Assembly: GCA_016866335.1 (NCBI GenBank)
Contig: VGMT01000008.1
Location: 12,049-76,048 of the forward strand
Length of the DNA stretch: 64,000 nt
Reading direction: 5' to 3'
Origin: Bacteroidota bacterium
GTDB lineage: Bacteria; Bacteroidota; Bacteroidia; CAIKAF01
The notes below the pieces were generated by a model. The model saw nothing but the letters and a program-made list of their open reading frames with translations, did no database searches and was not told the origin of the DNA. Positions 10,792-50,172 of this stretch are shown here, in pieces. Position 1 is the first letter of the stretch. Every line of letters starts with the position of its first letter. The position numbers and the translations under genes are program-made.

Positions 10792-12225
10792 ATGTCAGAG
10801 AATCTTCAAGAGGTATGGGAAAGCTGTCTAAAAGTGATTAAGGACAATGTAAGTCCTCAAAGCTTTCAGACATGGTTTGCTCCCATTGTTCCTCTAAAAT
10901 TGGAGAATCAAGTTCTGACCATCCAAGTGCCCTCTCAGTTTTTTTACGAATGGTTGGAAGAGCATTATATTACTCTTTTAAAACATACTGTTCGAAAAAC
11001 CGTTGGAGCGAATGGACGACTGGAGTATTCCATTATTATGGAAAACAGCTACCATTCTGAACGGCCACATACCATTCAAATACCTACCTCCGAAACTCGG
11101 GCTATAAAGAATCCAGCCATTAGTATGCCACTGGAAACCTCGGGTGAACATTCCATTCGAAATCCATTTGTGATTCCGGGGCTCAAAAAAATGCACATTG
11201 AGTCAAATCTGAATCCCAACCACAGCTTTGACAACTTTATTGAAGGAGATTGCAACCGCTTGGCAAGGTCGGCTGGTTACGCCGTTGCCAAAAATCCGGG
11301 TGGAACTTCCTTTAACCCCTTGCTTATTTATGGTGGAACTGGGCTAGGCAAAACACACCTTTCCCATGCCATAGGAATTGAAATTAAACGAATGTTCCCG
11401 AACAAAACCGTGCTCTATGTTCCGGCTGAAAAATTCACCACCCAGTTTATTGACTCGGTAAAAAACAACACGTCGTCCGACTTCGTCAATTTTTACCAAT
11501 TGATGGATGTTTTGATTCTAGATGATGTACATATTTTGGGCGGAAAGGAAAAAACCCAAGATGTTTTCTTCCATATTTTCAACCATTTGCACCAAAGTGG
11601 CAAGCAAATTATCTTAACATCAGACAAAGCTCCCGTTGACCTACAAGGAATGGAGCAACGCTTGCTTTCAAGATTTAAATGGGGATTATCGGCCGATTTG
11701 CAAGTCCCAGAATTGGAAACGCGGATTGCCATTTTGCATAAAAAATTGTACAACGACGGAATCGTTCTTCCCGATGATGTAATTGAATACCTTGCCTACT
11801 CCATCAACACCAATGTTCGTGAGTTAGAGGGGGCCTTGATTTCATTGATTGCTCAGTCCTCTTTAAACCGGAAAGAAATCAACATCGATTTGGCTCGAAG
11901 GATGATTGATAAGTTTGTCCGAAACAATGCCCGTGAAATTTCAATTGAGTTTATTCAAAAGGTTGTTTGCGATTATTTTGAACTGCCCATTGACCTTATG
12001 AAATCCAAAAGCCGGAAACGCGAAGTGGTTCAGGCAAGGCAAATTGCGATGTTCTTTTCTAAGCAGTTTACAAAATCCTCTCTTGCCAATATTGGTGCCC
12101 AATGCGGAGGAAAAGACCACGCAACTGTTTTACATGCCTGCAAAACGGTGAACAACCTCATTGAAACCGACAAGCAATTCAAGGCCTATGTGGACGAACT
12201 GGAAAAGAAAATCAATATTCAGTAA
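10792..12225 (+). CDS. dnaA: chromosomal replication initiator protein DnaA
   Basis: The AAA+ Walker A GGTGLGKTHL, box VII and a C-terminal DNA-binding domain (KSRKREVVQARQIAMF) are present. Confidence 0.9.
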   Translation: MSENLQEVWESCLKVIKDNVSPQSFQTWFAPIVPLKLENQVLTIQVPSQFFYEWLEEHYITLLKHTVRKTVGANGRLEYSIIMENSYHSERPHTIQIPTSETRAIKNPAISMPLETSGEHSIRNPFVIPGLKKMHIESNLNPNHSFDNFIEGDCNRLARSAGYAVAKNPGGTSFNPLLIYGGTGLGKTHLSHAIGIEIKRMFPNKTVLYVPAEKFTTQFIDSVKNNTSSDFVNFYQLMDVLILDDVHILGGKEKTQDVFFHIFNHLHQSGKQIILTSDKAPVDLQGMEQRLLSRFKWGLSADLQVPELETRIAILHKKLYNDGIVLPDDVIEYLAYSINTNVRELEGALISLIAQSSLNRKEINIDLARRMIDKFVRNNAREISIEFIQKVVCDYFELPIDLMKSKSRKREVVQARQIAMFFSKQFTKSSLANIGAQCGGKDHATVLHACKTVNNLIETDKQFKAYVDELEKKINIQ

Positions 12226-17520: not shown

Positions 17521-17690
17521 GTAGGCCTGCGCCCCCGATGGCAGCGGCAGCGACCGAAGTCGGTGCCATGGCTTGCCGCCCCGCGGAGGCGACCTTGGGA
17601 GCCCACGCAGGGGCCAGCAAGCCGCAGCACCGGCAAGGGCGCTACAGCGAACAGCGGGAATAGGCGCCCAAAAAAATCCCTGAAAGCACA
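17521..17690 (-). repeat. GC-rich long-hairpin intergenic element, copy C (inverted orientation, diverged)
   Basis: It shares GGGCTCCCAAGGTCGCCTCCGCGG and GCTTTCAGGG (as reverse complement) with copies at 20197 and 32455. GC is about 65% against a roughly 40% background, and it lies between the WYL gene stop and the ctpA start. Confidence 0.55.
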
Positions 17691-19301: not shown

Positions 19302-20189
19302 ATGAACACCTACGAAAAAGGCATGCTGGCCCCCGACAGCTTAACCGGAAAAACCATTGCAATTACAGGAGGAGGCAGCGGATTGGGCTTAAGCATGGCG
19401 GCCTATTTTCTAGCCTTGGGCGCACAGGTAAGCATTTGCGGCCGAAAAGAAGAAAAACTGGCCTCGGCAGCCGCGGAACTGCAATCCAGAACTGGAAAAA
19501 GCGTATTCTATTTTCCCTGCGATGTGCGGCAATACGATGAGGTGGAAGCCTTTCGCGAAAAAACCATTGAAGCCTTAGGGCCCGTCAATGGATTGGTAAA
19601 CAATGCCGCGGGAAACTTTTTAAGCCCCACCGAACGGTTAAGCCACCGCGCCTTCGATTCGGTGGTTGACATTGTTCTAAAAGGCAGTTACAACAACAGT
19701 TTAAGTTTCGGCAAGTATTGGATTGACCAAAAAATTGCGGGCAACACATTGAACATTGTAACCACCTACGCTTGGACAGGGTCGGCCTACGTGGTTCCAT
19801 CGGCCTGCGGCAAGGCGGGGGTTTTGGCCCTGACGCGGTCTTTGGGTGTTGAATGGGCCAAATACGGCATTCGAACCAACGCTATTGCTCCAGGCCCCTT
19901 CCCTACTCCGGGCGCTTGGGACCGCTTGTTTCCGCAAGAATTTATGCAGCAGGTTGACATACCCTCGAAAATTCCGGTGGGTCGGGCGGGTGTTCACCAA
20001 GAGTTGGCCAATTTAGCGGCGTATTTAATGTCGGATTTTTCGGCCTTTATTCAGGGCGAGGTAATTACCATTGATGGTGGCGAATGGCTTAAAAACGGAG
20101 GGGAATTTAGTTGGGTCGGCGATTTGATTCCGGCAGAAATGTGGGATATGGTTGAGGCATTGATTCGAAGCAAATCTGGCAAATCGTAA
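19302..20189 (+). CDS. SDR family oxidoreductase (2,4-dienoyl-CoA reductase-like)
   Basis: The Rossmann motif TGGGSGLG, the NNAAG motif and a YxxxK-type region are present. It is convergent with the thiolase gene. Confidence 0.72.
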   Translation: MNTYEKGMLAPDSLTGKTIAITGGGSGLGLSMAAYFLALGAQVSICGRKEEKLASAAAELQSRTGKSVFYFPCDVRQYDEVEAFREKTIEALGPVNGLVNNAAGNFLSPTERLSHRAFDSVVDIVLKGSYNNSLSFGKYWIDQKIAGNTLNIVTTYAWTGSAYVVPSACGKAGVLALTRSLGVEWAKYGIRTNAIAPGPFPTPGAWDRLFPQEFMQQVDIPSKIPVGRAGVHQELANLAAYLMSDFSAFIQGEVITIDGGEWLKNGGEFSWVGDLIPAEMWDMVEALIRSKSGKS

Positions 20190-20196
20190 TTTGTTA

Positions 20197-20351
20197 AGGG
20201 GGCGGCTGCCGGGCTTTCAGGGCTAATCCGCATCGGGCATTGGGGGCAGAATGCTCAGCAAGTAGCTCCTCGCGTCGCTCTTGCTGCGCGTTCTGCCCTG
20301 CCAATGCCCGCTTTGCGGGTTAGCCTCTTCAATCCCTGCCGCAGGGTGGCG
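20197..20351 (+). repeat. GC-rich long-hairpin intergenic element, copy A
   Basis: The whole unit folds as nested inverted repeats: GGCTAATCCGCA/TGCGGGTTAGCC, CGGGCATTGG/CCAATGCCCG and GCAGAATGCTCAGCAAG/CTTGCTGCGCGTTCTGC. It starts 8 nt after the SDR gene stop and ends 26 nt before the NlpC/P60 stop. Confidence 0.65.
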
Positions 20352-20377
20352 TAAAAAGGAAAGCAATAAACGCTGGG

Positions 20378-21082
20378 TTAAACGGGTCTGCGAATCAACC
20401 TCAAGGCATGGGAATAGCGCCCCTCATCTGCCCTAAAAATCCCCTGCTGGTCAATCTTATCGATGCGCACCATTCCAGCTGCATGCAGAACCCGATCGGC
20501 AGACAACAAAATGCCTACATGTACTATGCGGCCCTCTTCGTTGTCAAAAAACACCAAATCACCAGGCTTGCTTTCAAACAGCCAAGAAACCAGATGACCA
20601 ACTTCAGCTTGTTGAGCTGCGTCCCGAGGCAAAATAAAGCCACGAGATTCCCAAAACAACTGAGAAAGACCCGAGCAATCGATTCCCATCGCTGTTTTTC
20701 CGCCCCAAAGATAAGGTACGCCCAACCAAGCCTCTGCCCATTCCGGCAAAGAGATAGGTCCTTGGGTTGGTTGATGAACTTTTGACCCCATGCTGGTCCA
20801 AACCATTCCAAAATCGCCTGGCGTTTGTTGAATCAAGGCATGTTGAAAATAGCCGGGAACTTCGTTGCTGCCTATTGCAACCAAGCCAGAACTTCGAACC
20901 CAGGCCGGATAACGTTCGTCTTTGCGTTGCACAAACCACCATTCACCTTGATTTTCAAGGCAATCAACCCAATCCCCAAACAGGAATTGGGTGCTCATTT
21001 CGGCAGAGTGGGCTGGCAAGGAGCGTCCTGGCAGTACAGGAACCTGTACCCGAAAAGAGGAGGTCATATTAACAGCGTTCAA
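20378..21082 (-). CDS. NlpC/P60 (C40) family peptidase with N-terminal SH3-like region
   Basis: The catalytic Cys motif GIDCSGLSQLFW and downstream His are in the C-terminal half. Confidence 0.72.
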   Translation of the reverse strand: MNAVNMTSSFRVQVPVLPGRSLPAHSAEMSTQFLFGDWVDCLENQGEWWFVQRKDERYPAWVRSSGLVAIGSNEVPGYFQHALIQQTPGDFGMVWTSMGSKVHQPTQGPISLPEWAEAWLGVPYLWGGKTAMGIDCSGLSQLFWESRGFILPRDAAQQAEVGHLVSWLFESKPGDLVFFDNEEGRIVHVGILLSADRVLHAAGMVRIDKIDQQGIFRADEGRYSHALRLIRRPV

Positions 21083-22339: not shown

Positions 22340-23221
22340 TTAATCGGGCTTTGAAAAAGCCGAAATCCAAAATTCAGCGGAACTCGTGGCAGGACGCTCC
22401 AGCCATTCTTCCATGGGTCTTGGGTCCCCAACATTGTCTTTAAATAGCAGTTTAAACTGCTCGTAATCCAAAATTTCAGGAAACCAAACCGAAATAAAAT
22501 TCCGGGTAACAATGTCCACTAGATTTTTAGGAATTTCGATGGGTATTAACCGTTGATTACGAACCTTGGCAGCCAAGGTCATCAATTCGCCGAACGAAAT
22601 CGGAGTTGGTCCAACCAAATCTAAGCTTTTTACCGGCAATTCCTGAATCTGAATAGCCTGTTCCATGATCTGCACAACATCTTGGGGCATTACCGGCTGA
22701 ATTTTATGCTGAGGAAAGGAGGCAGGAAGCAATGCACGGTTACCTAAATAGCGGCTAATGTCCAAAAGCAATACCAGTTTTTGAACCAACAAATTGTTGG
22801 GCAGGCAGAGCAGCGATGGGCGCAAAACCAAAGCGTCGTCTTGCTTTAGCACAATAGCTTCGCCCTTGGCCTTGCTGTTTAAAAAGGCAGAGCCAGAATC
22901 GGAATCTGAACCCAATACCGAGACGTGAAGAATACGCGGATTGCCTATCTCATGCCGATTCTCAATAAGGGTGCGGAGCAGTTCGGTATGAACCTCAAAA
23001 AATGCCTCGTTTTTGCTTTCTCGAATAATGCCGGCCACATTGACAAAAACATCAACCTTTCCTAGGGTTTTCCAATCGCTATGAATAGGATCAAAGCAAA
23101 CATACCCCTTTCCTGATTTCCTTGATAGAGCAAGTACTTCGCAATCTGCCCGTTTCAATAGGCTTTGATGCAGCAGCGAACCGAGCTGTCCTCGAGCTCC
23201 AAGAATGGCTATGCGTTTCAC
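22340..23221 (-). CDS. NAD(P)H-binding epimerase/dehydratase-family protein (NDUFA9/NmrA-like)
   Basis: An N-terminal ILGARGQLGS Rossmann motif is present in a 293-aa protein. Confidence 0.55.
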   Translation of the reverse strand: MKRIAILGARGQLGSLLHQSLLKRADCEVLALSRKSGKGYVCFDPIHSDWKTLGKVDVFVNVAGIIRESKNEAFFEVHTELLRTLIENRHEIGNPRILHVSVLGSDSDSGSAFLNSKAKGEAIVLKQDDALVLRPSLLCLPNNLLVQKLVLLLDISRYLGNRALLPASFPQHKIQPVMPQDVVQIMEQAIQIQELPVKSLDLVGPTPISFGELMTLAAKVRNQRLIPIEIPKNLVDIVTRNFISVWFPEILDYEQFKLLFKDNVGDPRPMEEWLERPATSSAEFWISAFSKPD

Positions 23222-23258: not shown

Positions 23259-24386
23259 TCAATTCACCATTATAGGCATCATCAACATGGTAATCTCTTC
23301 AATATCATGCTGGTATTCGCTGGGGGCTAAAATTCCAGGACGACTTGGTGTGCTCATTTTCAAGGTTACGCTTTCTTGATCCATGTTGCTGAGCATTTCT
23401 ATTAAAAAACGGCTATTGAAACCAATTTCCATGTCTTCGCCAGAATACTGGCAATGCAATTCTTCTTTGGCCGAATTGGAAAAATCCAAATCTTCTGCAA
23501 TAATTTCAAGCTGGTTGCCTGCCAATTTTACGCGCACCAAATAGGTGGCTTTATTTGAAAAAATAGAAACCCTTTTTAAACCATTAAGCAGGGCATGCCG
23601 ATCAATGGTTAATACATTGGGGTTTTCTTTAGGAATAACAGCCTCGTAGGCAGGATATTTACCTTCAATTAATCGGCTGAAAACAACATAATGTCCGAAG
23701 GAAAAGCGTACGTTCTTTTCGCTGTATTCAATGGACAAAGGCTCTTCCGATCCCCCCAGAATATTCTTCAGCAAATTCAAAGGCCGCTTATTTAAAATCA
23801 GTTCAAAGCTTGAATCGCATTGAATATCAAAGCGTTTATAAAGCACCAATTTATGGGCGTCGGTAGCTACAAAGTTGGCCGATTCAGGAGAGGCTTGAAG
23901 TAAAACACCCGACATAACCGGACGCAGCTCATCGTTCCCGGCGGCAAAAATCGTTTTTGCTACCGCATTGTTAAAGGTGAGGGCTTCAACCGAAAAGGAA
24001 CCCTTGCTATGAAACTCAGGCAAGGAAGGAAATTCGGAAGCATCGTGCCCTGCCGTTTTGTACTTTCCGCTATCGGAATGAATGTTTATGCCTTGGGTGT
24101 TTGGATCTACCGTAATGGATAGGGGCACATCTGCAAATGTTTTTAGTATATCCACCAAAAACCGAGCAGGGATAGCAACCTGTCCTTCCGATTTAACGCT
24201 GACCTCAGGTATTTCGGCAATTACTGTAGTCTCTAAATCAGAGGCGGTTACTTTTAATCCACCGTTCCCCGTTGACTGAAACAAAAAATCCTGCAAAATG
24301 GGAACAGAATTGTTTCCACCTTGAATAACCCCCATTAGGGTTTGAATATGACCTAGAAGGGTTTTACTTGAAACGACAAACTGCAT
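23259..24386 (-). CDS. dnaN: DNA polymerase III beta sliding clamp
   Basis: A 375-aa, three-domain clamp with an N-terminus MQFVVSSKTLL...VPILQDFLF that is typical of DnaN. Confidence 0.8.
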   Translation of the reverse strand: MQFVVSSKTLLGHIQTLMGVIQGGNNSVPILQDFLFQSTGNGGLKVTASDLETTVIAEIPEVSVKSEGQVAIPARFLVDILKTFADVPLSITVDPNTQGINIHSDSGKYKTAGHDASEFPSLPEFHSKGSFSVEALTFNNAVAKTIFAAGNDELRPVMSGVLLQASPESANFVATDAHKLVLYKRFDIQCDSSFELILNKRPLNLLKNILGGSEEPLSIEYSEKNVRFSFGHYVVFSRLIEGKYPAYEAVIPKENPNVLTIDRHALLNGLKRVSIFSNKATYLVRVKLAGNQLEIIAEDLDFSNSAKEELHCQYSGEDMEIGFNSRFLIEMLSNMDQESVTLKMSTPSRPGILAPSEYQHDIEEITMLMMPIMVN

Positions 24387-28030: not shown

Positions 28031-29890
28031 ATGACCCGATTGTTTTGGGCTCTTTTGAGCCTGTATTTTTTCCCTCTTGCAGCACAACAACCTACAACAT
28101 TTTCATGCCCAAGGCTAGGGGTTAGTTCCATGCCCGAAGGCTTGGAAACAGAATGGATGAGTGATTTGGTAAGCCGCGAAGCACCCAACTTTCTATCCAA
28201 GCCCGACAAGCGGTTTATGTACGAACAAAAGGATAAAAGCGCTAAACTTTTCCCAAGAAAATCAAAAGTTGCCTCTGCCGAAAAAAGCCTGGTTCCCCAA
28301 CCCATTTTGGGAACCGCATTCCAAGGAAACGTCTTTAGCAGCAGCGTGCCCATGGACAATTCAATGGCATTCAATGAAGACTCCCTGTTGGTTTCTGCCA
28401 TCAATACTACCATTCGTGTGTACAGTAGAAACACCGGAATTCTGCGCTCATCTTTGACCCTTCGATACTTTACCGATGCTGTAGGTTTAATTGGAACCGC
28501 AAACTACCGATATGACCCCAAAGTTATCTTCGACCCCCTAGCCCAACGCTTTATGGCCGTTATTTTAAACGGAAGCGTCGCTGCCACCTCTAAAATTATT
28601 CTTGCCTTCTCGCAAACCTCAGATCCCCGCGGCGACTGGAACATGTACACCCTTCCCGGTAATCCTTTTAATGACTCTACCTGGTTTGATTTCCCTTGCA
28701 TTAGTTTCACCGAAAATGAGGTTTTTATTACTGGCAATCAAATTCGGGAAGGAGTTAGTTGGCAAATGGGCTTTCGGCAATCCGTCATCTGGCAAATTCG
28801 AAAACAAGAAGGCTACAACGGCGATTCTCTTCACAGCCAGGTTTGGTCAGGAATTGAATACGGCGGACGGCCCCTTAGAAACCTTCATGCCGTAACCCGT
28901 TGCTCCGATTTCACCAGTAACCCAGAACAGTATTTTTTGTCAAACCGAAATTTCGATGTTCAAAACGATTCCCTCTTTCTGCTGAAAATCAGCGACACCA
29001 TTGGAACCGGAACCCTTTCTATTCAACACATTCAACTTCCCCTTGCATATGGAGTTCCTCCCGAGGCAAGGCAGCCAGACACAGCAAAAACCTTAGCCAC
29101 AAACGACGCCCGGGTTTTAGCCGCAAATCTTGACAGAGGCCGTATTCAATTTGTTGGAAATACCCTTGATACCTCAACCGGTTCCTGCGGCATTTACCTA
29201 GGTCAAGTTGCTCAACTTAACCAAGCTAACCCCCTTGTTGAACATGCCAGAATCATTGGATTTGATACCCTAGATTTGGGATACCCAAACCTGGTTACCA
29301 TTGGTTATGCTCCCGACAACAGCCCAAGGGCAATTGTGGCCTTTAACCACAGTGGCCCCTCTACCTTCCCCGGAATTTCTGCGCTCACCTTTGATCAAGG
29401 GCAGGTTTCTGACCTGATTCGTGTTAAAACTGGGCTTCAAAGCCTAAATGTTATCGAGGGACCAAGCGAAAGATGGGGAGATTATTTCGGAGCCCAACAG
29501 TATTTCCCAGAATACGGCAAAATTTGGATTGCTGGAACGTTTGGAGCCGCTGACAAACGCCATTCAACTTGGATTGCCGAACTCATCAGCCCTTTTGGTT
29601 CTTCGCCTGCAGCGGTTCAACCCATCAACCCAAACAACCCCTCATCCTTTCTTTTTCCAAACCCCTCTTTCCAACGCAGCTTTTTCCGGTTTAATCTCAC
29701 CCAACCCGGTCCAGTTAAACTTGATTTGTTCGACCTTAACGGCAAATCCCTTGGAACTGTTTACCAGGGAATGGGCCTTAAAGGAGAACAAGAAATAGGT
29801 TTTGAAATCGGACATTTACCCCCCGCCAGTTACTTGGTAGTTCTAACCTCGCCGCTAGGAAAAACAACAAAAACCATCGTTAAACAATAG
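28031..29890 (+). CDS. secreted hypothetical protein with T9SS C-terminal sorting domain
   Basis: A signal peptide is present. The C-terminal roughly 80 aa (VKLDLFDLNGKSLGTVYQG...YLVVLTSPLGKTTKTIVKQ) match the Por-secretion CTD pattern. Confidence 0.55.
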   Translation: MTRLFWALLSLYFFPLAAQQPTTFSCPRLGVSSMPEGLETEWMSDLVSREAPNFLSKPDKRFMYEQKDKSAKLFPRKSKVASAEKSLVPQPILGTAFQGNVFSSSVPMDNSMAFNEDSLLVSAINTTIRVYSRNTGILRSSLTLRYFTDAVGLIGTANYRYDPKVIFDPLAQRFMAVILNGSVAATSKIILAFSQTSDPRGDWNMYTLPGNPFNDSTWFDFPCISFTENEVFITGNQIREGVSWQMGFRQSVIWQIRKQEGYNGDSLHSQVWSGIEYGGRPLRNLHAVTRCSDFTSNPEQYFLSNRNFDVQNDSLFLLKISDTIGTGTLSIQHIQLPLAYGVPPEARQPDTAKTLATNDARVLAANLDRGRIQFVGNTLDTSTGSCGIYLGQVAQLNQANPLVEHARIIGFDTLDLGYPNLVTIGYAPDNSPRAIVAFNHSGPSTFPGISALTFDQGQVSDLIRVKTGLQSLNVIEGPSERWGDYFGAQQYFPEYGKIWIAGTFGAADKRHSTWIAELISPFGSSPAAVQPINPNNPSSFLFPNPSFQRSFFRFNLTQPGPVKLDLFDLNGKSLGTVYQGMGLKGEQEIGFEIGHLPPASYLVVLTSPLGKTTKTIVKQ

Positions 29891-31342: not shown

Positions 31343-32451
31343 TCGTTTTTGTATTGGTTTGCCTACCAGGTTTAGGTAGCTGCCAAGCCATCGCCGATGG
31401 ATTGATTTATTCCCTCCCAAAATCGGAATTCACTTTGCTTGGAACGGTACGCACAACCCAATACACTCCAGGCCCTTTAGCAACTTACGCAAAAAAATAC
31501 TTGGGAATTCAGGCCAAAGAGATGCCCGAAACAATCCATCAAATTACACAAAGCAAGCTTATTTTAAATTTGTTGCCCGACACAGCATGCCTTTATTTGG
31601 TTCCCAACGCTGTGCTGCAGCAAAACCGATTCAACTTTGGTAGGGGATCAATGCTGCTTTCTGTCAATTCGCCCAACCCAGCCCCTCAACACAATCAAGG
31701 TTTATTCAGTAGGTCTGCAAGCAGCACTGGAAATACTGATTTGCCTGTGCTGCCAATGTTATGCCTAACCCAAGAAACCGACACCATTTATCGCCGAGAA
31801 CTCTTGGCAGATTCCGTTGTGGTTGAACACTGGGAAATTCAAACCCTAATTCAACAGCAAACCACCGAGGAAATTGCCAAAAGTACGGCGCAAAAACTGG
31901 TTCAATTGGAGCAAGAACGGCAACAGTTGCTGCGATTCAATGAAGATGTTCAGTATTCTGGACCCGCCCTTCGGGTCATGCTTCAGAGGCTAGATTCCTT
32001 AGAAACATATTACCATGAATTGTTCCAAGGCCGACAAACTCACCGTATGACTGCTTTTTCCTTTCCTCTTACCCTTTCTAATTCTGAGCTGGCTGATTTG
32101 CAACTTAAAGGACACACAACCAAAGTCATCGCTGGTTTTTCTGCTGACGCAGGCTTCACTTCCGATACCTCCCAAGCATTGCCTCTCGTGCTCAGCATCC
32201 AAGGCTTGGGATTGCCGCAAGCCATGCGCCGGTTTATTCCCGAAAAAGCTGCCAAATCATCCGAAGGTTTGCTGCTTCGCATTCCTGAGCGTTGCACTAT
32301 GCAAATTTCGCTTGGGAATACTTTGCTGATTCGCGAATATCAGCCCCTATTTCAGTTGGGTACTTTGGTGCGCATTCCGCTTCCTAAATCAGGTATTTTA
32401 GAATATTCAATTTGGCCCGAATTGGGCAATCCTGATTCGGTTGAATGGTGA
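31306..32451 (+). CDS. hypothetical lipoprotein
   Basis: A signal peptide with lipobox CLPGLGSC is present. No recognisable catalytic motif was found, and the 5' end overlaps the symporter gene. Confidence 0.4.
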   Translation: MDFIFISPLKRLIVFVLVCLPGLGSCQAIADGLIYSLPKSEFTLLGTVRTTQYTPGPLATYAKKYLGIQAKEMPETIHQITQSKLILNLLPDTACLYLVPNAVLQQNRFNFGRGSMLLSVNSPNPAPQHNQGLFSRSASSTGNTDLPVLPMLCLTQETDTIYRRELLADSVVVEHWEIQTLIQQQTTEEIAKSTAQKLVQLEQERQQLLRFNEDVQYSGPALRVMLQRLDSLETYYHELFQGRQTHRMTAFSFPLTLSNSELADLQLKGHTTKVIAGFSADAGFTSDTSQALPLVLSIQGLGLPQAMRRFIPEKAAKSSEGLLLRIPERCTMQISLGNTLLIREYQPLFQLGTLVRIPLPKSGILEYSIWPELGNPDSVEW

Positions 32452-32454
32452 ATT

Positions 32455-32606
32455 GTGGGCGGGTTCCGGGCTTTCACAGGTAGTCCGCACCCATGCATGC
32501 TGGCTACAGCGGCTTTGCGCGGGCTCCTAAAGTCGCCTGCGCAGCTCGCGTAGCCATACTTGCATGGTTTTGCGGGCTACCTAGCTCAATCCCGCCCGCG
32601 GCCACT
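32455..32606 (+). repeat. GC-rich long-hairpin intergenic element, copy B
   Basis: It is collinear with copy A in CCGGGCTTTCA, TTTGCGGG.TA.C and TCAATCCC.GCCGC. Its stem AGGTAGTCCGCA/TGCGGGCTACCT covaries with copy A. It begins 4 nt after the upstream stop codon and is convergent with pnp. Confidence 0.65.
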
Positions 32607-32669
32607 CATTTCAATACTCCTTTCAAAAAAAATGCTCCCGAAGGAGCATATATTAGTTAAATCCGCGGA

Positions 32670-48807: not shown

Positions 48808-48888
48808 TATTGTTCGCTCACCGTTCTTTGTAAATTGATTGTTTTTAAACGAAATCCATCAATTTATTTGAAAAAATGCATTTTTCAC

Positions 48889-48925
48889 TTGACAGGTAAA
48901 TTCTAATCCCGTAGATTTGCTTTTC
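48889..48925 (+). promoter_or_regulatory. candidate promoter (TTGACA-N17-TAGATTTG)
   Basis: TTGACA lies at 48889-48894 and TAGATTTG at 48918-48925. The latter matches the Bacteroidota sigma-AB -7 consensus TAnnTTTG. It points into a gene-free region. Confidence 0.3.
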
Positions 48926-49359
48926 ACTAGTGAATAAAACCTAACCTAATCGTTCTTGCTTCGTCACTTATTGGGGTGGCGAAGAACACTTCGGGTTCAT
49001 AAAGCGTGAAGTCTGATAGCGATAAAACGCACCTTATACGTGAATTTTATCGCTCGGGGGTCTCATGGATGCTTCTTAAAAACAGTGATATTTAGTTCAT
49101 TGGATTTAGGAAGCGGGAACATTGGGAATGAGACGGGGGCGCTGGCTACGCACCCAAATTAAATAACTCGCTTAGTCAAATTGACTGAATGTATTTGAGA
49201 ATGGACAGTTCCAAGCAATACGTCTTTTTGATAAAATCGAGTTGGTTGTAGAAAAACCGGTTTACGCCCAAGGGAGTCCTTCCTGAAAGTTCAGGTTGCG
49301 TCTCTTTTGGGCGTGCCTTCGACCAATCCCTTATCCAATTTTCCAGCTGTAGAATTGAG

Positions 49360-49503
49360 CGGCATGCAGCCCGGATTGAACGGGCAGACTGCGCCAGCAA
49401 ACCCCTTAGGCCGTGGGCTGCGGAGGCACGAAGTGACCCCGCAAAGCCGCTGGCCTAAAGGGTTTGCTAAGCTGGATGCAAGTGAAAGCCGGATCAGCTG
49501 CCC
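49360..49503 (-). repeat. GC-rich long-hairpin intergenic element, copy D (inverted orientation)
   Basis: It contains CGCAAAGCCGCTG and GTGAAAGCCGGA..CTGCCC. These match the reverse complement of copy B (CGCAAAGCCGCTG, GTGAAAGCCCGGAACCCGCCC) and of copy A. It abuts the yggS stop. Confidence 0.55.
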
Positions 49504-49509
49504 AAATAC

Positions 49510-50172
49510 CTATCCCCTCAAACCAAATATATCGCTCCCTACTCGTACACAGGTACTCCCCTCTTGAACCGCTAGGGGCCAATCCTGCGACATGCCCATC
49601 GATAATAGTGAAATATGCGAAAATTGGGGTATTAATTTGATTTCATGAAAAAGCGAATTCAACCGTTTAAATTCGGCCTCCACAATCCCTTTATCTGATA
49701 CATTGCTGGCCATGCCCATTAGGCCTTGAATAGAAATATACCCTTGAGCCAAAGGAAAAACCTCGGTTAAAAAAGGGATAACCTCCGAAAAAGGCATTCC
49801 GAACTTGGTATCTTCAGAAGAAATTTGAACCTGTATTAGGGCAGATATTTTTATTTCTAAGCGTCTGGCCTCTTTTAGGATTTCATGAAAAAGCCGCACT
49901 GAATCGAGACTATGGATTAAATAAACACTTTGAATAAGGGGTTTCACCTTATTCCGTTGCAAATGACCAATTAAATGCCAGCGAATATCTGACGGCAATT
50001 TACTCGCCTTTTCAAGAAGTTCTTGGACCTTATTTTCACCAAAATCACGAACTCCTGTTTCATAAAGCTCTAGAATCTTTTCAATGCTGTGATTTTTAGA
50101 GACGGCAAGCAATTGAACATGAAGAGGGATTTCGGCCCTAATCCTTCGGTAATTATCAACCGTAGTACTCAT
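49510..50172 (-). CDS. yggS: YggS family pyridoxal-phosphate homeostasis protein
   Basis: A 220-aa alanine-racemase-N-fold protein with the N-terminal lysine region LLAVSKNHS. Confidence 0.78.
   Translation of the reverse strand: MSTTVDNYRRIRAEIPLHVQLLAVSKNHSIEKILELYETGVRDFGENKVQELLEKASKLPSDIRWHLIGHLQRNKVKPLIQSVYLIHSLDSVRLFHEILKEARRLEIKISALIQVQISSEDTKFGMPFSEVIPFLTEVFPLAQGYISIQGLMGMASNVSDKGIVEAEFKRLNSLFHEIKLIPQFSHISLLSMGMSQDWPLAVQEGSTCVRVGSDIFGLRG

Follow-up and report, generated by a model that had tools for sequence, protein, structure and literature searches.

Two long hairpins in the intergenic DNA of a Bacteroidota bacterium, here termed copies A and B, belong to a family of dispersed, GC-rich repeats that has not been described before and is present in many copies per genome. 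Both are located in a 64,000-nucleotide stretch of contig VGMT01000008.1 (hereafter the window), and alignments of 87 and 127 copies showed that the secondary structure of the element is under selection, or at least strongly maintained. The element is ∼142–145 nt long with a G+C content of ∼65–70%, as against 43% for the genome, and all copies are intergenic. On the plus strand, each copy folds into one long rod with a conserved base, a conserved tip and variable stems in the middle.

The original prediction, which had started from copies A and B, paired GGCTAATCCGCA with TGCGGGTTAGCC in copy A and AGGTAGTCCGCA with TGCGGGCTACCT in copy B (the P2 arms, Table 1). Both pairings were confirmed, the former consisting of 11 Watson–Crick pairs and one T.G. 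The three differences between the arms of the two copies (positions 1, 3 and 6) are each matched on the opposite arm, and the T.G wobble is common to both, as had been stated. Copy A had further been described as adding nested, perfect inner stems. Of these, CGGGCATTGG/CCAATGCCCG is indeed perfect, but GCAGAATGC/GCGTTCTGC contains one T.G and forms part of 19 nt arms that are 89% complementary. Nor are such stems an addition of copy A, because copy B, which lies 12 kb outside the region covered by that prediction (20197–20351), has long inner stems of its own. The hairpin interiors of the two copies are unrelated in sequence, yet paired in both.

Table 1. Positions of the four elements in the window and of the structural parts of copies A and B.
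Feature	Position	Strand	Remarks
Copy A, whole element	20198–20342	+	covariance model 123 bits, E 1e-28
Copy A, P1, 5′ strand GCGGCT	20202–20207		preceded by G-run
Copy A, bulge GCC	20208–20210		
Copy A, GGG	20211–20213		
Copy A, mismatch helix, 5′ side CTTTCA	20214–20219	+	followed by P2 and distal stems
Copy A, hairpin as first described	20221–20325	+	
Copy A, P2 arms	20221–20232 / 20314–20325		12 nt, one T.G
Copy A, P3 arms	20234–20243 / 20301–20310		10 nt, perfect
Copy A, P4 arms	20244–20262 / 20280–20298		19 nt, 89% complementary
Copy A, apical module AGCTCC-TCGC-GTCGCT	20264–20279	+	
Copy A, mismatch helix, 3′ side TTCAAT	20328–20333		
Copy A, CCC	20334–20336		
Copy A, P1, 3′ strand TGCCGC	20337–20342		
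Copy B, whole element	32457–32599	+	covariance model 145 bits
Copy B, P2 arms	32478–32489 / 32571–32582		
Copy C, whole element	49358–49508	−	diverged; covariance model 60 bits, E 4e-13
Copy D, whole element	17521–17674	−	diverged; covariance model 50 bits, E 1e-10

Copy A occupies a convergent spacer (20190–20377) between a short-chain dehydrogenase (SDR) gene (19302–20189, plus strand) and an NlpC/P60 peptidase gene (20378–21082, minus strand), the stop codons of which, at 20189 and 20378, flank it. As RNA, this spacer was predicted to form a single rod of −96.4 kcal/mol (z −4.7 relative to dinucleotide shuffles, of which 0/200 were as good). In the apical module of copy A, G-C and C-G pairs are followed by a tandem T.C/C.T mismatch, and the variable loop of 4 nt is closed by a C-G pair. 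Copy B, with a predicted fold of −106.8 kcal/mol (z −8.8 versus shuffles), is housed in the convergent spacer 32452–32607 between a DUF4831 gene and pnp, and starts 6 nt past the stop codon of the former (32449–32451). The stop codon of pnp and a canonical intrinsic terminator of this gene (minus strand, 32632–32649; ATGCTCCTTCGGGAGCAT followed by TTTTTTTG) lie beyond the 3′ end of copy B. As copy B is separated from the pnp stop codon (32670) by this terminator, it is outside the pnp transcript, and it is likely to be contained in the 3′ untranslated region of the DUF4831 gene.

A covariance model search raised the number of copies in the window to four by adding the diverged copies C and D. 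Copy C starts ∼2 nt past the stop codon of a co-oriented YggS-like gene (49510–50172, minus strand), has the base helix CCGG/CCGG in place of GGG/CCC, and its tip is altered. Copy D, which lies antisense between two plus-strand genes (a WYL-domain gene and an S41 peptidase gene), keeps the canonical tip GGGCTCCCAAGGTCGCC and has the base helix CCCG/CGGG. Wherever a convergent junction of the window has a spacer of 188 nt or more (three cases), a copy is present beside a co-oriented stop codon. The ∼550 nt between a 134-aa ORF and copy C (48808–49357) are mostly without an ORF of at least 50 aa, and this segment matched neither an Rfam model at E values up to 1 nor the repeat model.

The wider family was recovered with a search pattern built from the motifs common to copies A and B. 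A scan of species-representative genomes with this pattern returned at least 94 stretches, at least 91 of which were true copies (at least 88 distinct), all with a core length of 125–128 nt. Among the matches listed, the hosts included the MAGs ErkenSummer_bin-6618, LaPlata_bin-1703 and casp15-mb.160 (hereafter Erken, LaPlata and casp15) of uncultured freshwater or brackish Flavobacteriales/Bacteroidota, and two more copies, of a variant form, came from a Chitinophagaceae MAG. The covariance model, built from 87 copies, detected at least 127 copies in 721 kb of related DNA, the four of the window included. After removal of one near-duplicate genome, 93 copies showed a median pairwise identity of 74% and fell into 68 clusters at 90% identity, with one large subfamily occurring across genomes. 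The species of the window was also encountered in lake metagenomes.

Comparison of the window with Rfam 15 gave no match at the gathering score, and at E values up to 10 only generic miRNA-hairpin models appeared, with 16–28 bits against thresholds of 67–98. A tRNA, tmRNA or tRNA-like element was discounted, as ARAGORN detected none. A resemblance to the 5′ end of 7SL RNA (GCCGGGC, GUAGUCC) was regarded as fortuitous, no SRP model matching. A search of the literature returned no description of such a repeat family. Neither a phage-borne form (nine matches of a loose pattern over IMG/VR, none with the hairpin and all chance matches) nor a shorter ‘minimal’ version (12 chance matches only in a metagenome scan for interiors of 49–79 nt) could be substantiated. 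No split or solo half-elements other than one 10-mer were present in the Flavobacteriales loci, and the 721 kb of related DNA contained no elongated version.

The variant in the Chitinophagaceae MAG (MFD09671.bin.3.142; L040:2918-3056, minus strand, and L069:2362-2499, plus strand) has a basal module that is nearly base-for-base identical, an interior with ∼50 nt of AT-rich, unpaired sequence containing ATTATTCATTAT-like motifs, and a repeat unit reaching ∼70 nt further 5′ and 25 nt further 3′. It could have arisen by horizontal spread to another class of Bacteroidota, or represent a binning error.

Maintenance of the fold was evident from both alignments. In the MAFFT alignment of 87 copies, 93.9% of the pair cells were standard pairs, compared with 38–50% when the 3′ partners were slid by 1–3 columns; 30 of the 43 pairs had changed on both sides, and the covariation score of 0.426 (0.05–0.10 when slid) was reached in 0/500 shuffles. 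The alignment of 127 copies fitted with the covariance model, which leans towards the structure of the model, gave 95.0% standard cells (36–47% slid), two-sided change in 39/43 pairs and a score of 0.510, again with 0/500 shuffles. RNAalifold alone reported compensatory change in 28/40 pairs. As the copies are paralogous members of one dispersed family that includes subfamilies, such cell counts overstate the number of independent events. Most pairs nevertheless exhibited three to four pair types, with compensation both within subfamilies and between orthologues: copies at the same site in different species folded with −80 to −100 kcal/mol and revealed 41 double compensations in eight comparisons. 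Compensation was also present in copies that the search pattern had not forced, both in the base helix (GGG/CCC to CCGG/CCGG, CCCG/CGGG or CCTG/CAGG) and in the adjoining segment (CTTTCA/TTCAAT to CTATCG/CTCTAT or CTGTCG/CTCCAT). The original prediction had been staked on the outcome of a larger alignment, and with 87 and 127 copies this outcome favours structure. Its further claim, that selection acts on structure rather than on sequence, holds as regards structure but not to the exclusion of sequence, because the basal and apical modules are strongly conserved in sequence too.

The rod is closed by an outer helix P1 of 6 bp (GCGGCA/UGCCGC, GCGGGU/GCCCGC or GCGGUA/UACCGC), directly above which a 3-nt bulge is located on the 5′ side, followed by a helix of 3–4 bp (GGG/CCC, CCGG/CCGG, CCCG/CGGG or CCUG/CAGG). 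The next segment, 5′-CUUUCA/5′-UUCAAU, appears at first sight to be a 6 × 6 internal loop. Its variants CUAUCG/CUCUAU and CUGUCG/CUCCAU, however, indicate a helix of the form C.U, U-A, N-N′, U.C, C.U, R-Y, with three conserved pyrimidine–pyrimidine mismatches that include a tandem U.C/C.U. Helix P2 contains GU(A/U)G (GUAG or GUUG) beside a nearly invariant U.G; the corresponding GT(A/T)G tetramer is thus internal, paired with C(T/A)AC and at a fixed place. Above P2, a UU bulge leads into a stem of ∼25 bp that differs among subfamilies, and the rod ends in the conserved tip GC-UC-C[N4]G-UC-GC, in which the tandem U.C/C.U mismatch recurs.

The limits of the element are set by the G-run before P1 and the terminal GCCGC, as the information content beyond them equals background except for flanking tracts: the 5′ flank is T-rich and C-poor, the 3′ flank C/A-rich and G-poor, and a T-rich tract adjoins the 5′ end in 59/90 copies. 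An extension of the helix into the flanks was rejected, as the flanks of a copy pair no better with each other than with those of other copies or with random DNA. The same applies to a kissing interaction of an AAAG tip loop with the basal CUUU, since the loop varies and CUUUCA does not, and to a K-turn on the minus strand, since the G.A pairs do not adjoin the 3-nt bulge.

Both strands were predicted to fold with nearly equal energy (plus strand −86.8, minus strand −86.4 kcal/mol), and in the minus-strand version the conserved U.C/C.U mismatches would turn into tandem G.A pairs. The minimum-energy folds contained 270 G.U pairs on the plus strand versus 47 on the minus strand, and the consensus pairs 107 G.U versus 32 A.C. 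This excess of G.U over A.C identifies the plus strand, as written for copies A and B, as the selected fold, and it disfavours a symmetric duplex or cruciform. Of the two forms originally proposed, RNA or DNA cruciform, the symmetric double-strand cruciform therefore fits poorly. Copies antisense to or upstream of neighbouring genes displayed an equally strong excess on the plus strand (44 versus 8 in the class denoted ‘<E<’), so that the strand asymmetry is a property of the element and not of local read-through.

The position of the copies relative to genes was scored with the near-duplicate genome removed. Twenty-nine copies had convergent neighbouring genes, 25 tandem genes in sense, 15 tandem genes in antisense and 8 divergent genes; 38% of the copies thus lie in convergent spacers, which make up 13.5% of the background junctions (14% divergent, 72% tandem). 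The upstream gene was co-oriented in 54 cases versus 23, with a median distance of 21–26 nt from its stop codon to the element, and within convergent spacers the element was closer to the co-oriented stop codon in 24 cases versus 4. About 30% of the copies are antisense to or upstream of neighbouring genes. Where two copies are adjacent, all six independent pairs have the arrangement plus then minus, each copy facing its own gene. In these convergent pairs (L017:1602-1982, L058:70-417, L083:6387-6902, L103:2889-3262, L107:3650-4189 and L108:111-467) the copies are 38–230 nt apart, and they may represent a composite inverted-pair unit as in BIMEs.

Transcription signals belonging to the element itself were scarce. 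The Bacteroidetes −7 box TAnnTTTG was present upstream of only 1/91 copies, and no sigma-70-like signal was detected there. No U-tract follows the element, a hairpin with a T-run occurred within 130 nt downstream in only 3/88 copies, and terminator-like sites in the window were no commoner than in shuffles. Insertion behind the U-tract of an older terminator was likewise rejected, as a hairpin preceded the T-tract in 3/90 copies compared with 12% of random positions. The sole clear canonical terminator directly before a copy is that at L104:~350-386 (GGGTCCGGGCACTTCGGTGTTCGGACCC followed by TTTTTTT).

The sites occupied by the element proved to be stable. That of copy A is occupied in 4/4 genomes (the window genome and the Erken, LaPlata and casp15 MAGs), and an orthologue of copy D exists in all three MAGs (Erken, L102:631-785; partial in LaPlata and casp15). 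In ∼30 locus pairs of LaPlata and casp15, mostly 90–98% identical, every element was at a shared site, as was every comparable one between the Erken and LaPlata genomes (68–78% identical); the 6–7 sites compared across 70–80% identity were all shared. Hence, no presence/absence polymorphism was observed among the loci compared (LaPlata/casp15; Erken/LaPlata/window genomes), and six metagenome contigs of the species of the window were identical over copy A. Orthologous elements were 75–89% identical, equal to or above the locus-wide 68–82% in mostly coding surroundings, and BLAST alignments continue across the element but are interrupted in the spacer next to it. Orthologues of the window genome and the Erken MAG were mutual best matches, whereas in the more distant comparison of Erken with LaPlata same-genome paralogues were closer than orthologues, which fits either conversion or replacement of one copy by another, or a shared tendency to be drawn to a consensus.

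Direct marks of mobility were looked for in the same material. No flanking direct repeat of 2–8 nt exceeded the swapped-flank control, although old target-site duplications may have decayed. The genes between paired copies (gyrB and an aminotransferase) are housekeeping genes, and no transposase was located there. A tblastn search for an IS200-like TnpA in the 721 kb returned no match; this is a weak test, as these are parts of genomes and the query sequence was approximate. SDR homologues with 77% and 70% identity reside in different neighbourhoods, and their 37 kb contained neither the element nor a clean empty site. The nearly identical casp15 and LaPlata genomes are set apart at one copy by an immediately adjacent indel of 927 nt (L042:3553-4480 versus L044:3265-3269); as a carrier of a transposase it was rejected, since it holds an ordinary gene of 186 aa with a signal-peptide-like N-terminus.

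The explanation that we tentatively prefer, with slightly less than even confidence, is that of an old REP/ERIC-like dispersed repeat which is co-transcribed and kept for its fold as a 3′-end structure on mRNA. The family would have spread long ago by a DNA-level copy mechanism, as suggested by the copy number, the subfamilies, the occurrence of the basal module in a second class of Bacteroidota and the concerted evolution. Copies once fixed would have been long retained as their fold matters, in line with the positional conservation, the compensation between orthologues and a conservation above that of the adjacent spacer. At present the element would most likely be co-transcribed with the upstream gene, the rod being placed at the 3′ end of that mRNA, as indicated by where and in which direction it lies with respect to stop codons, by the convergent pairs and by the lack of a promoter. 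There it could act as a barrier to 3′ exonucleases and/or as a U-tract-independent stop or insulator, especially between convergent genes. The conserved base and tip, held at a fixed distance, are probably read by a protein; the constant length and the two mismatch modules are suggestive of a partner able to measure the rod. Transcription, 3′ ends and binding protein are all predicted here from sequence. Counting against a reading at mRNA 3′ ends, ∼30% of the copies are in other orientations, and the G.U asymmetry is equally strong in these; as minus-strand RNA folds equally well, a hairpin with a generic function could lie in either orientation. Nor are the fixed core of 125–128 nt and the conserved mismatches accounted for by a simple barrier to exonucleases. 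Moreover, that distant orthologues are not the nearest copies counts against the 3′-end reading and fits copying or gene conversion between sites.

A less likely alternative, but one that carries considerable weight, is a selfish, non-autonomous mobile element acting as single-stranded DNA, like REP/REPIN and IS200/IS605 ends. The plus (‘top’) strand hairpin with its mismatches would be recognized by a HUH (Y1) transposase or other recombinase acting in trans, and inserted without duplication beside a T-rich target; the structure would be kept for the need of the enzyme, and the position after genes would reflect target choice and the survival of harmless insertions. The many dispersed copies, the lack of target-site duplications and the GTAG/GTTG tetramer at a fixed place agree with such an element, as do the frequent T-rich tract at the 5′ end, which pairing with the 3′ flank does not explain, and a strand asymmetry that is independent of neighbouring transcription, as a REP/IS200-type top-strand element would show. 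The subfamilies common to genomes, the paralogues that are closer than distant orthologues, and the nearly identical basal module in a MAG of a different class point the same way. However, no transposase gene was present between or beside copies, the tblastn search, weak as it is, gave no IS200-like TnpA, and the viral contigs of IMG/VR contained no canonical copies. The shared sites in the ∼30 LaPlata/casp15 locus pairs and in the 6–7 more distant comparisons leave no polymorphism to indicate movement, and the copies are old and diverse. The uniformly convergent adjacent pairs and the 24:4 preference for the co-oriented stop codon suit transcription better than the polarity of replication.

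It is rather improbable that the rods constitute a lineage-specific RNA 3′-end signal, in which the two U.C/C.U modules, at a fixed spacing of ∼55 bp, would be recognized by a dedicated protein or by RNase III together with a partner, with termination, processing or insulation of transcripts as the outcome. The genomes of this lineage appear poor in canonical hairpin-plus-U terminators. If true, a domesticated repeat would here have given rise to a type of terminator or processing element that is new for bacteria.

Still less probable is a DNA site, cruciform or protein-bound duplex, that serves chromosome organization or topology where convergent transcription piles up supercoils. Binding of gyrase, IHF and Pol I has been reported for REP/BIME elements of E. 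coli, and the enrichment between convergent genes, the palindromic nature over the full length with both strands folding equally well, and the strict conservation of length would accord with such a site. But G.U (G.T) is 3–6 times commoner than A.C on one strand, which is unexpected for a cruciform or duplex, the polarity towards the co-oriented stop codon is left unexplained, and the conserved mismatches would destabilize extrusion. A family of independent small RNA genes with individual promoters and terminators is very improbable: the strand-specific, context-independent fold and the conserved tip loop would be in keeping with it, but the copies have no conserved promoter and no U-tract downstream, their first paired base lies ∼25 nt past a stop codon, and a small RNA family with over 100 members in each genome would be unusual.

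Repeats that are palindromic and dispersed have been described mainly in Proteobacteria and Firmicutes, and it is still debated whether they are maintained to the benefit of the host or only of their own spread. REP hairpins of E. coli are co-transcribed and have been reported to protect upstream mRNA and, when near the stop codon, to affect translation. Like the REP, BIME and REPIN elements of Proteobacteria, the present copies are extragenic palindromes of high copy number located mostly at gene 3′ ends and between convergent genes; they share with REP/REPIN the lack of target-site duplications, a folded single strand with conserved imperfections and a GTAG-like tetramer, and the REPIN is likewise a hairpin of ∼100 nt. 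REPs, however, are imperfect palindromes of 20–40 nt with a terminal GTAG or CGTC tag, two of which in inverted orientation form a REPIN (PMC3733652). The unit here is a single rod of ∼142 nt, with GT(A/T)G internal and base-paired and with further conserved modules outside it; it does not consist of two short palindromes, its halves not being palindromic themselves, and the host phylum is Bacteroidota. No RAYT (Y1 transposase) was detected here, within partial genomes and with an approximate tblastn query, the genes between paired copies being housekeeping genes.

The ERIC elements of Enterobacteria and the Correia/NEMIS elements of Neisseria form long RNA hairpins that are substrates of RNases and alter the stability of flanking mRNA. 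ERIC (IRU) and Correia elements resemble the present family in being imperfect palindromes of ∼105–155 bp in transcribed intergenic DNA, the ∼127 bp of ERIC being nearly the same length. They are MITE-like, with terminal inverted repeats, TA duplications and insertion polymorphism among strains, whereas neither duplication nor polymorphism was seen here; no sequence similarity exists, and the stem sequence of the present element is much more diverse and its paired covariation much stronger. The attC sites of integrons are also recognized as a folded single strand, by structure over sequence, and have in common with the rods conserved basal boxes, a mismatched or unpaired spacer, extrahelical bases and a variable terminal structure. 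Inspection of the consensus revealed no R″/R′ sites (RYYYAAC/GTTRRRY), and in place of co-oriented cassette arrays beside an integrase the copies are dispersed among housekeeping genes in both orientations. From an intrinsic (Rho-independent) terminator the element differs in that no U-tract follows the hairpin, a T-rich tract being found on the 5′ side instead. The RHE of sponge mitochondria, described as GC-rich repetitive hairpin elements of AT-rich organelle genomes (PMC2800124), likewise appear as GC-rich hairpin repeats that invade the intergenic DNA of a lower-GC genome, by analogy only, as the hosts are unrelated and the elements much shorter.

The element therefore behaves like REP/REPIN, ERIC and Correia but lacks those of their defining features that were tested, i.e. 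the size and tag of REPs and the duplication and polymorphism of MITEs. It is a structured, dispersed intergenic repeat of a new family; its general kind is common, and its function is one that we infer. It provides an unusually clean case from Bacteroidota, with over 100 diverged copies per genome, covariation at nearly all stem positions, a fixed length, two mismatch modules and the same sites occupied across species that are as diverged as their coding genes, a combination that points to a specific partner, protein or enzyme. Should the elements mark or create the 3′ ends of mRNAs, they would be relevant to the ending of transcription units in a phylum with signals unlike those of the E. 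coli model. The covariance model is ready for annotating these abundant freshwater genomes.

Some further features of the loci were recorded. In the window, dnaA (10792–12225) and dnaN (23259–24386) are 11 kb apart, and the intervening DNA contains unrelated genes together with copies D and A. The GC skew changes sign with gene orientation and gives no clear origin signal. Two conserved ORFs of the window, 22340–23221 (minus strand, 293 aa) and 28031–29890 (plus strand, 619 aa), are without a Pfam domain. Finally, spurious ORFs of 120–190 aa run through the rods on either strand (L020:4301-4663, L026:3130-3702, L049:2322-2735, L065:1299-1724, L083:6512-6940 and others), and false genes are likely to be predicted at such positions when these MAGs are annotated automatically.
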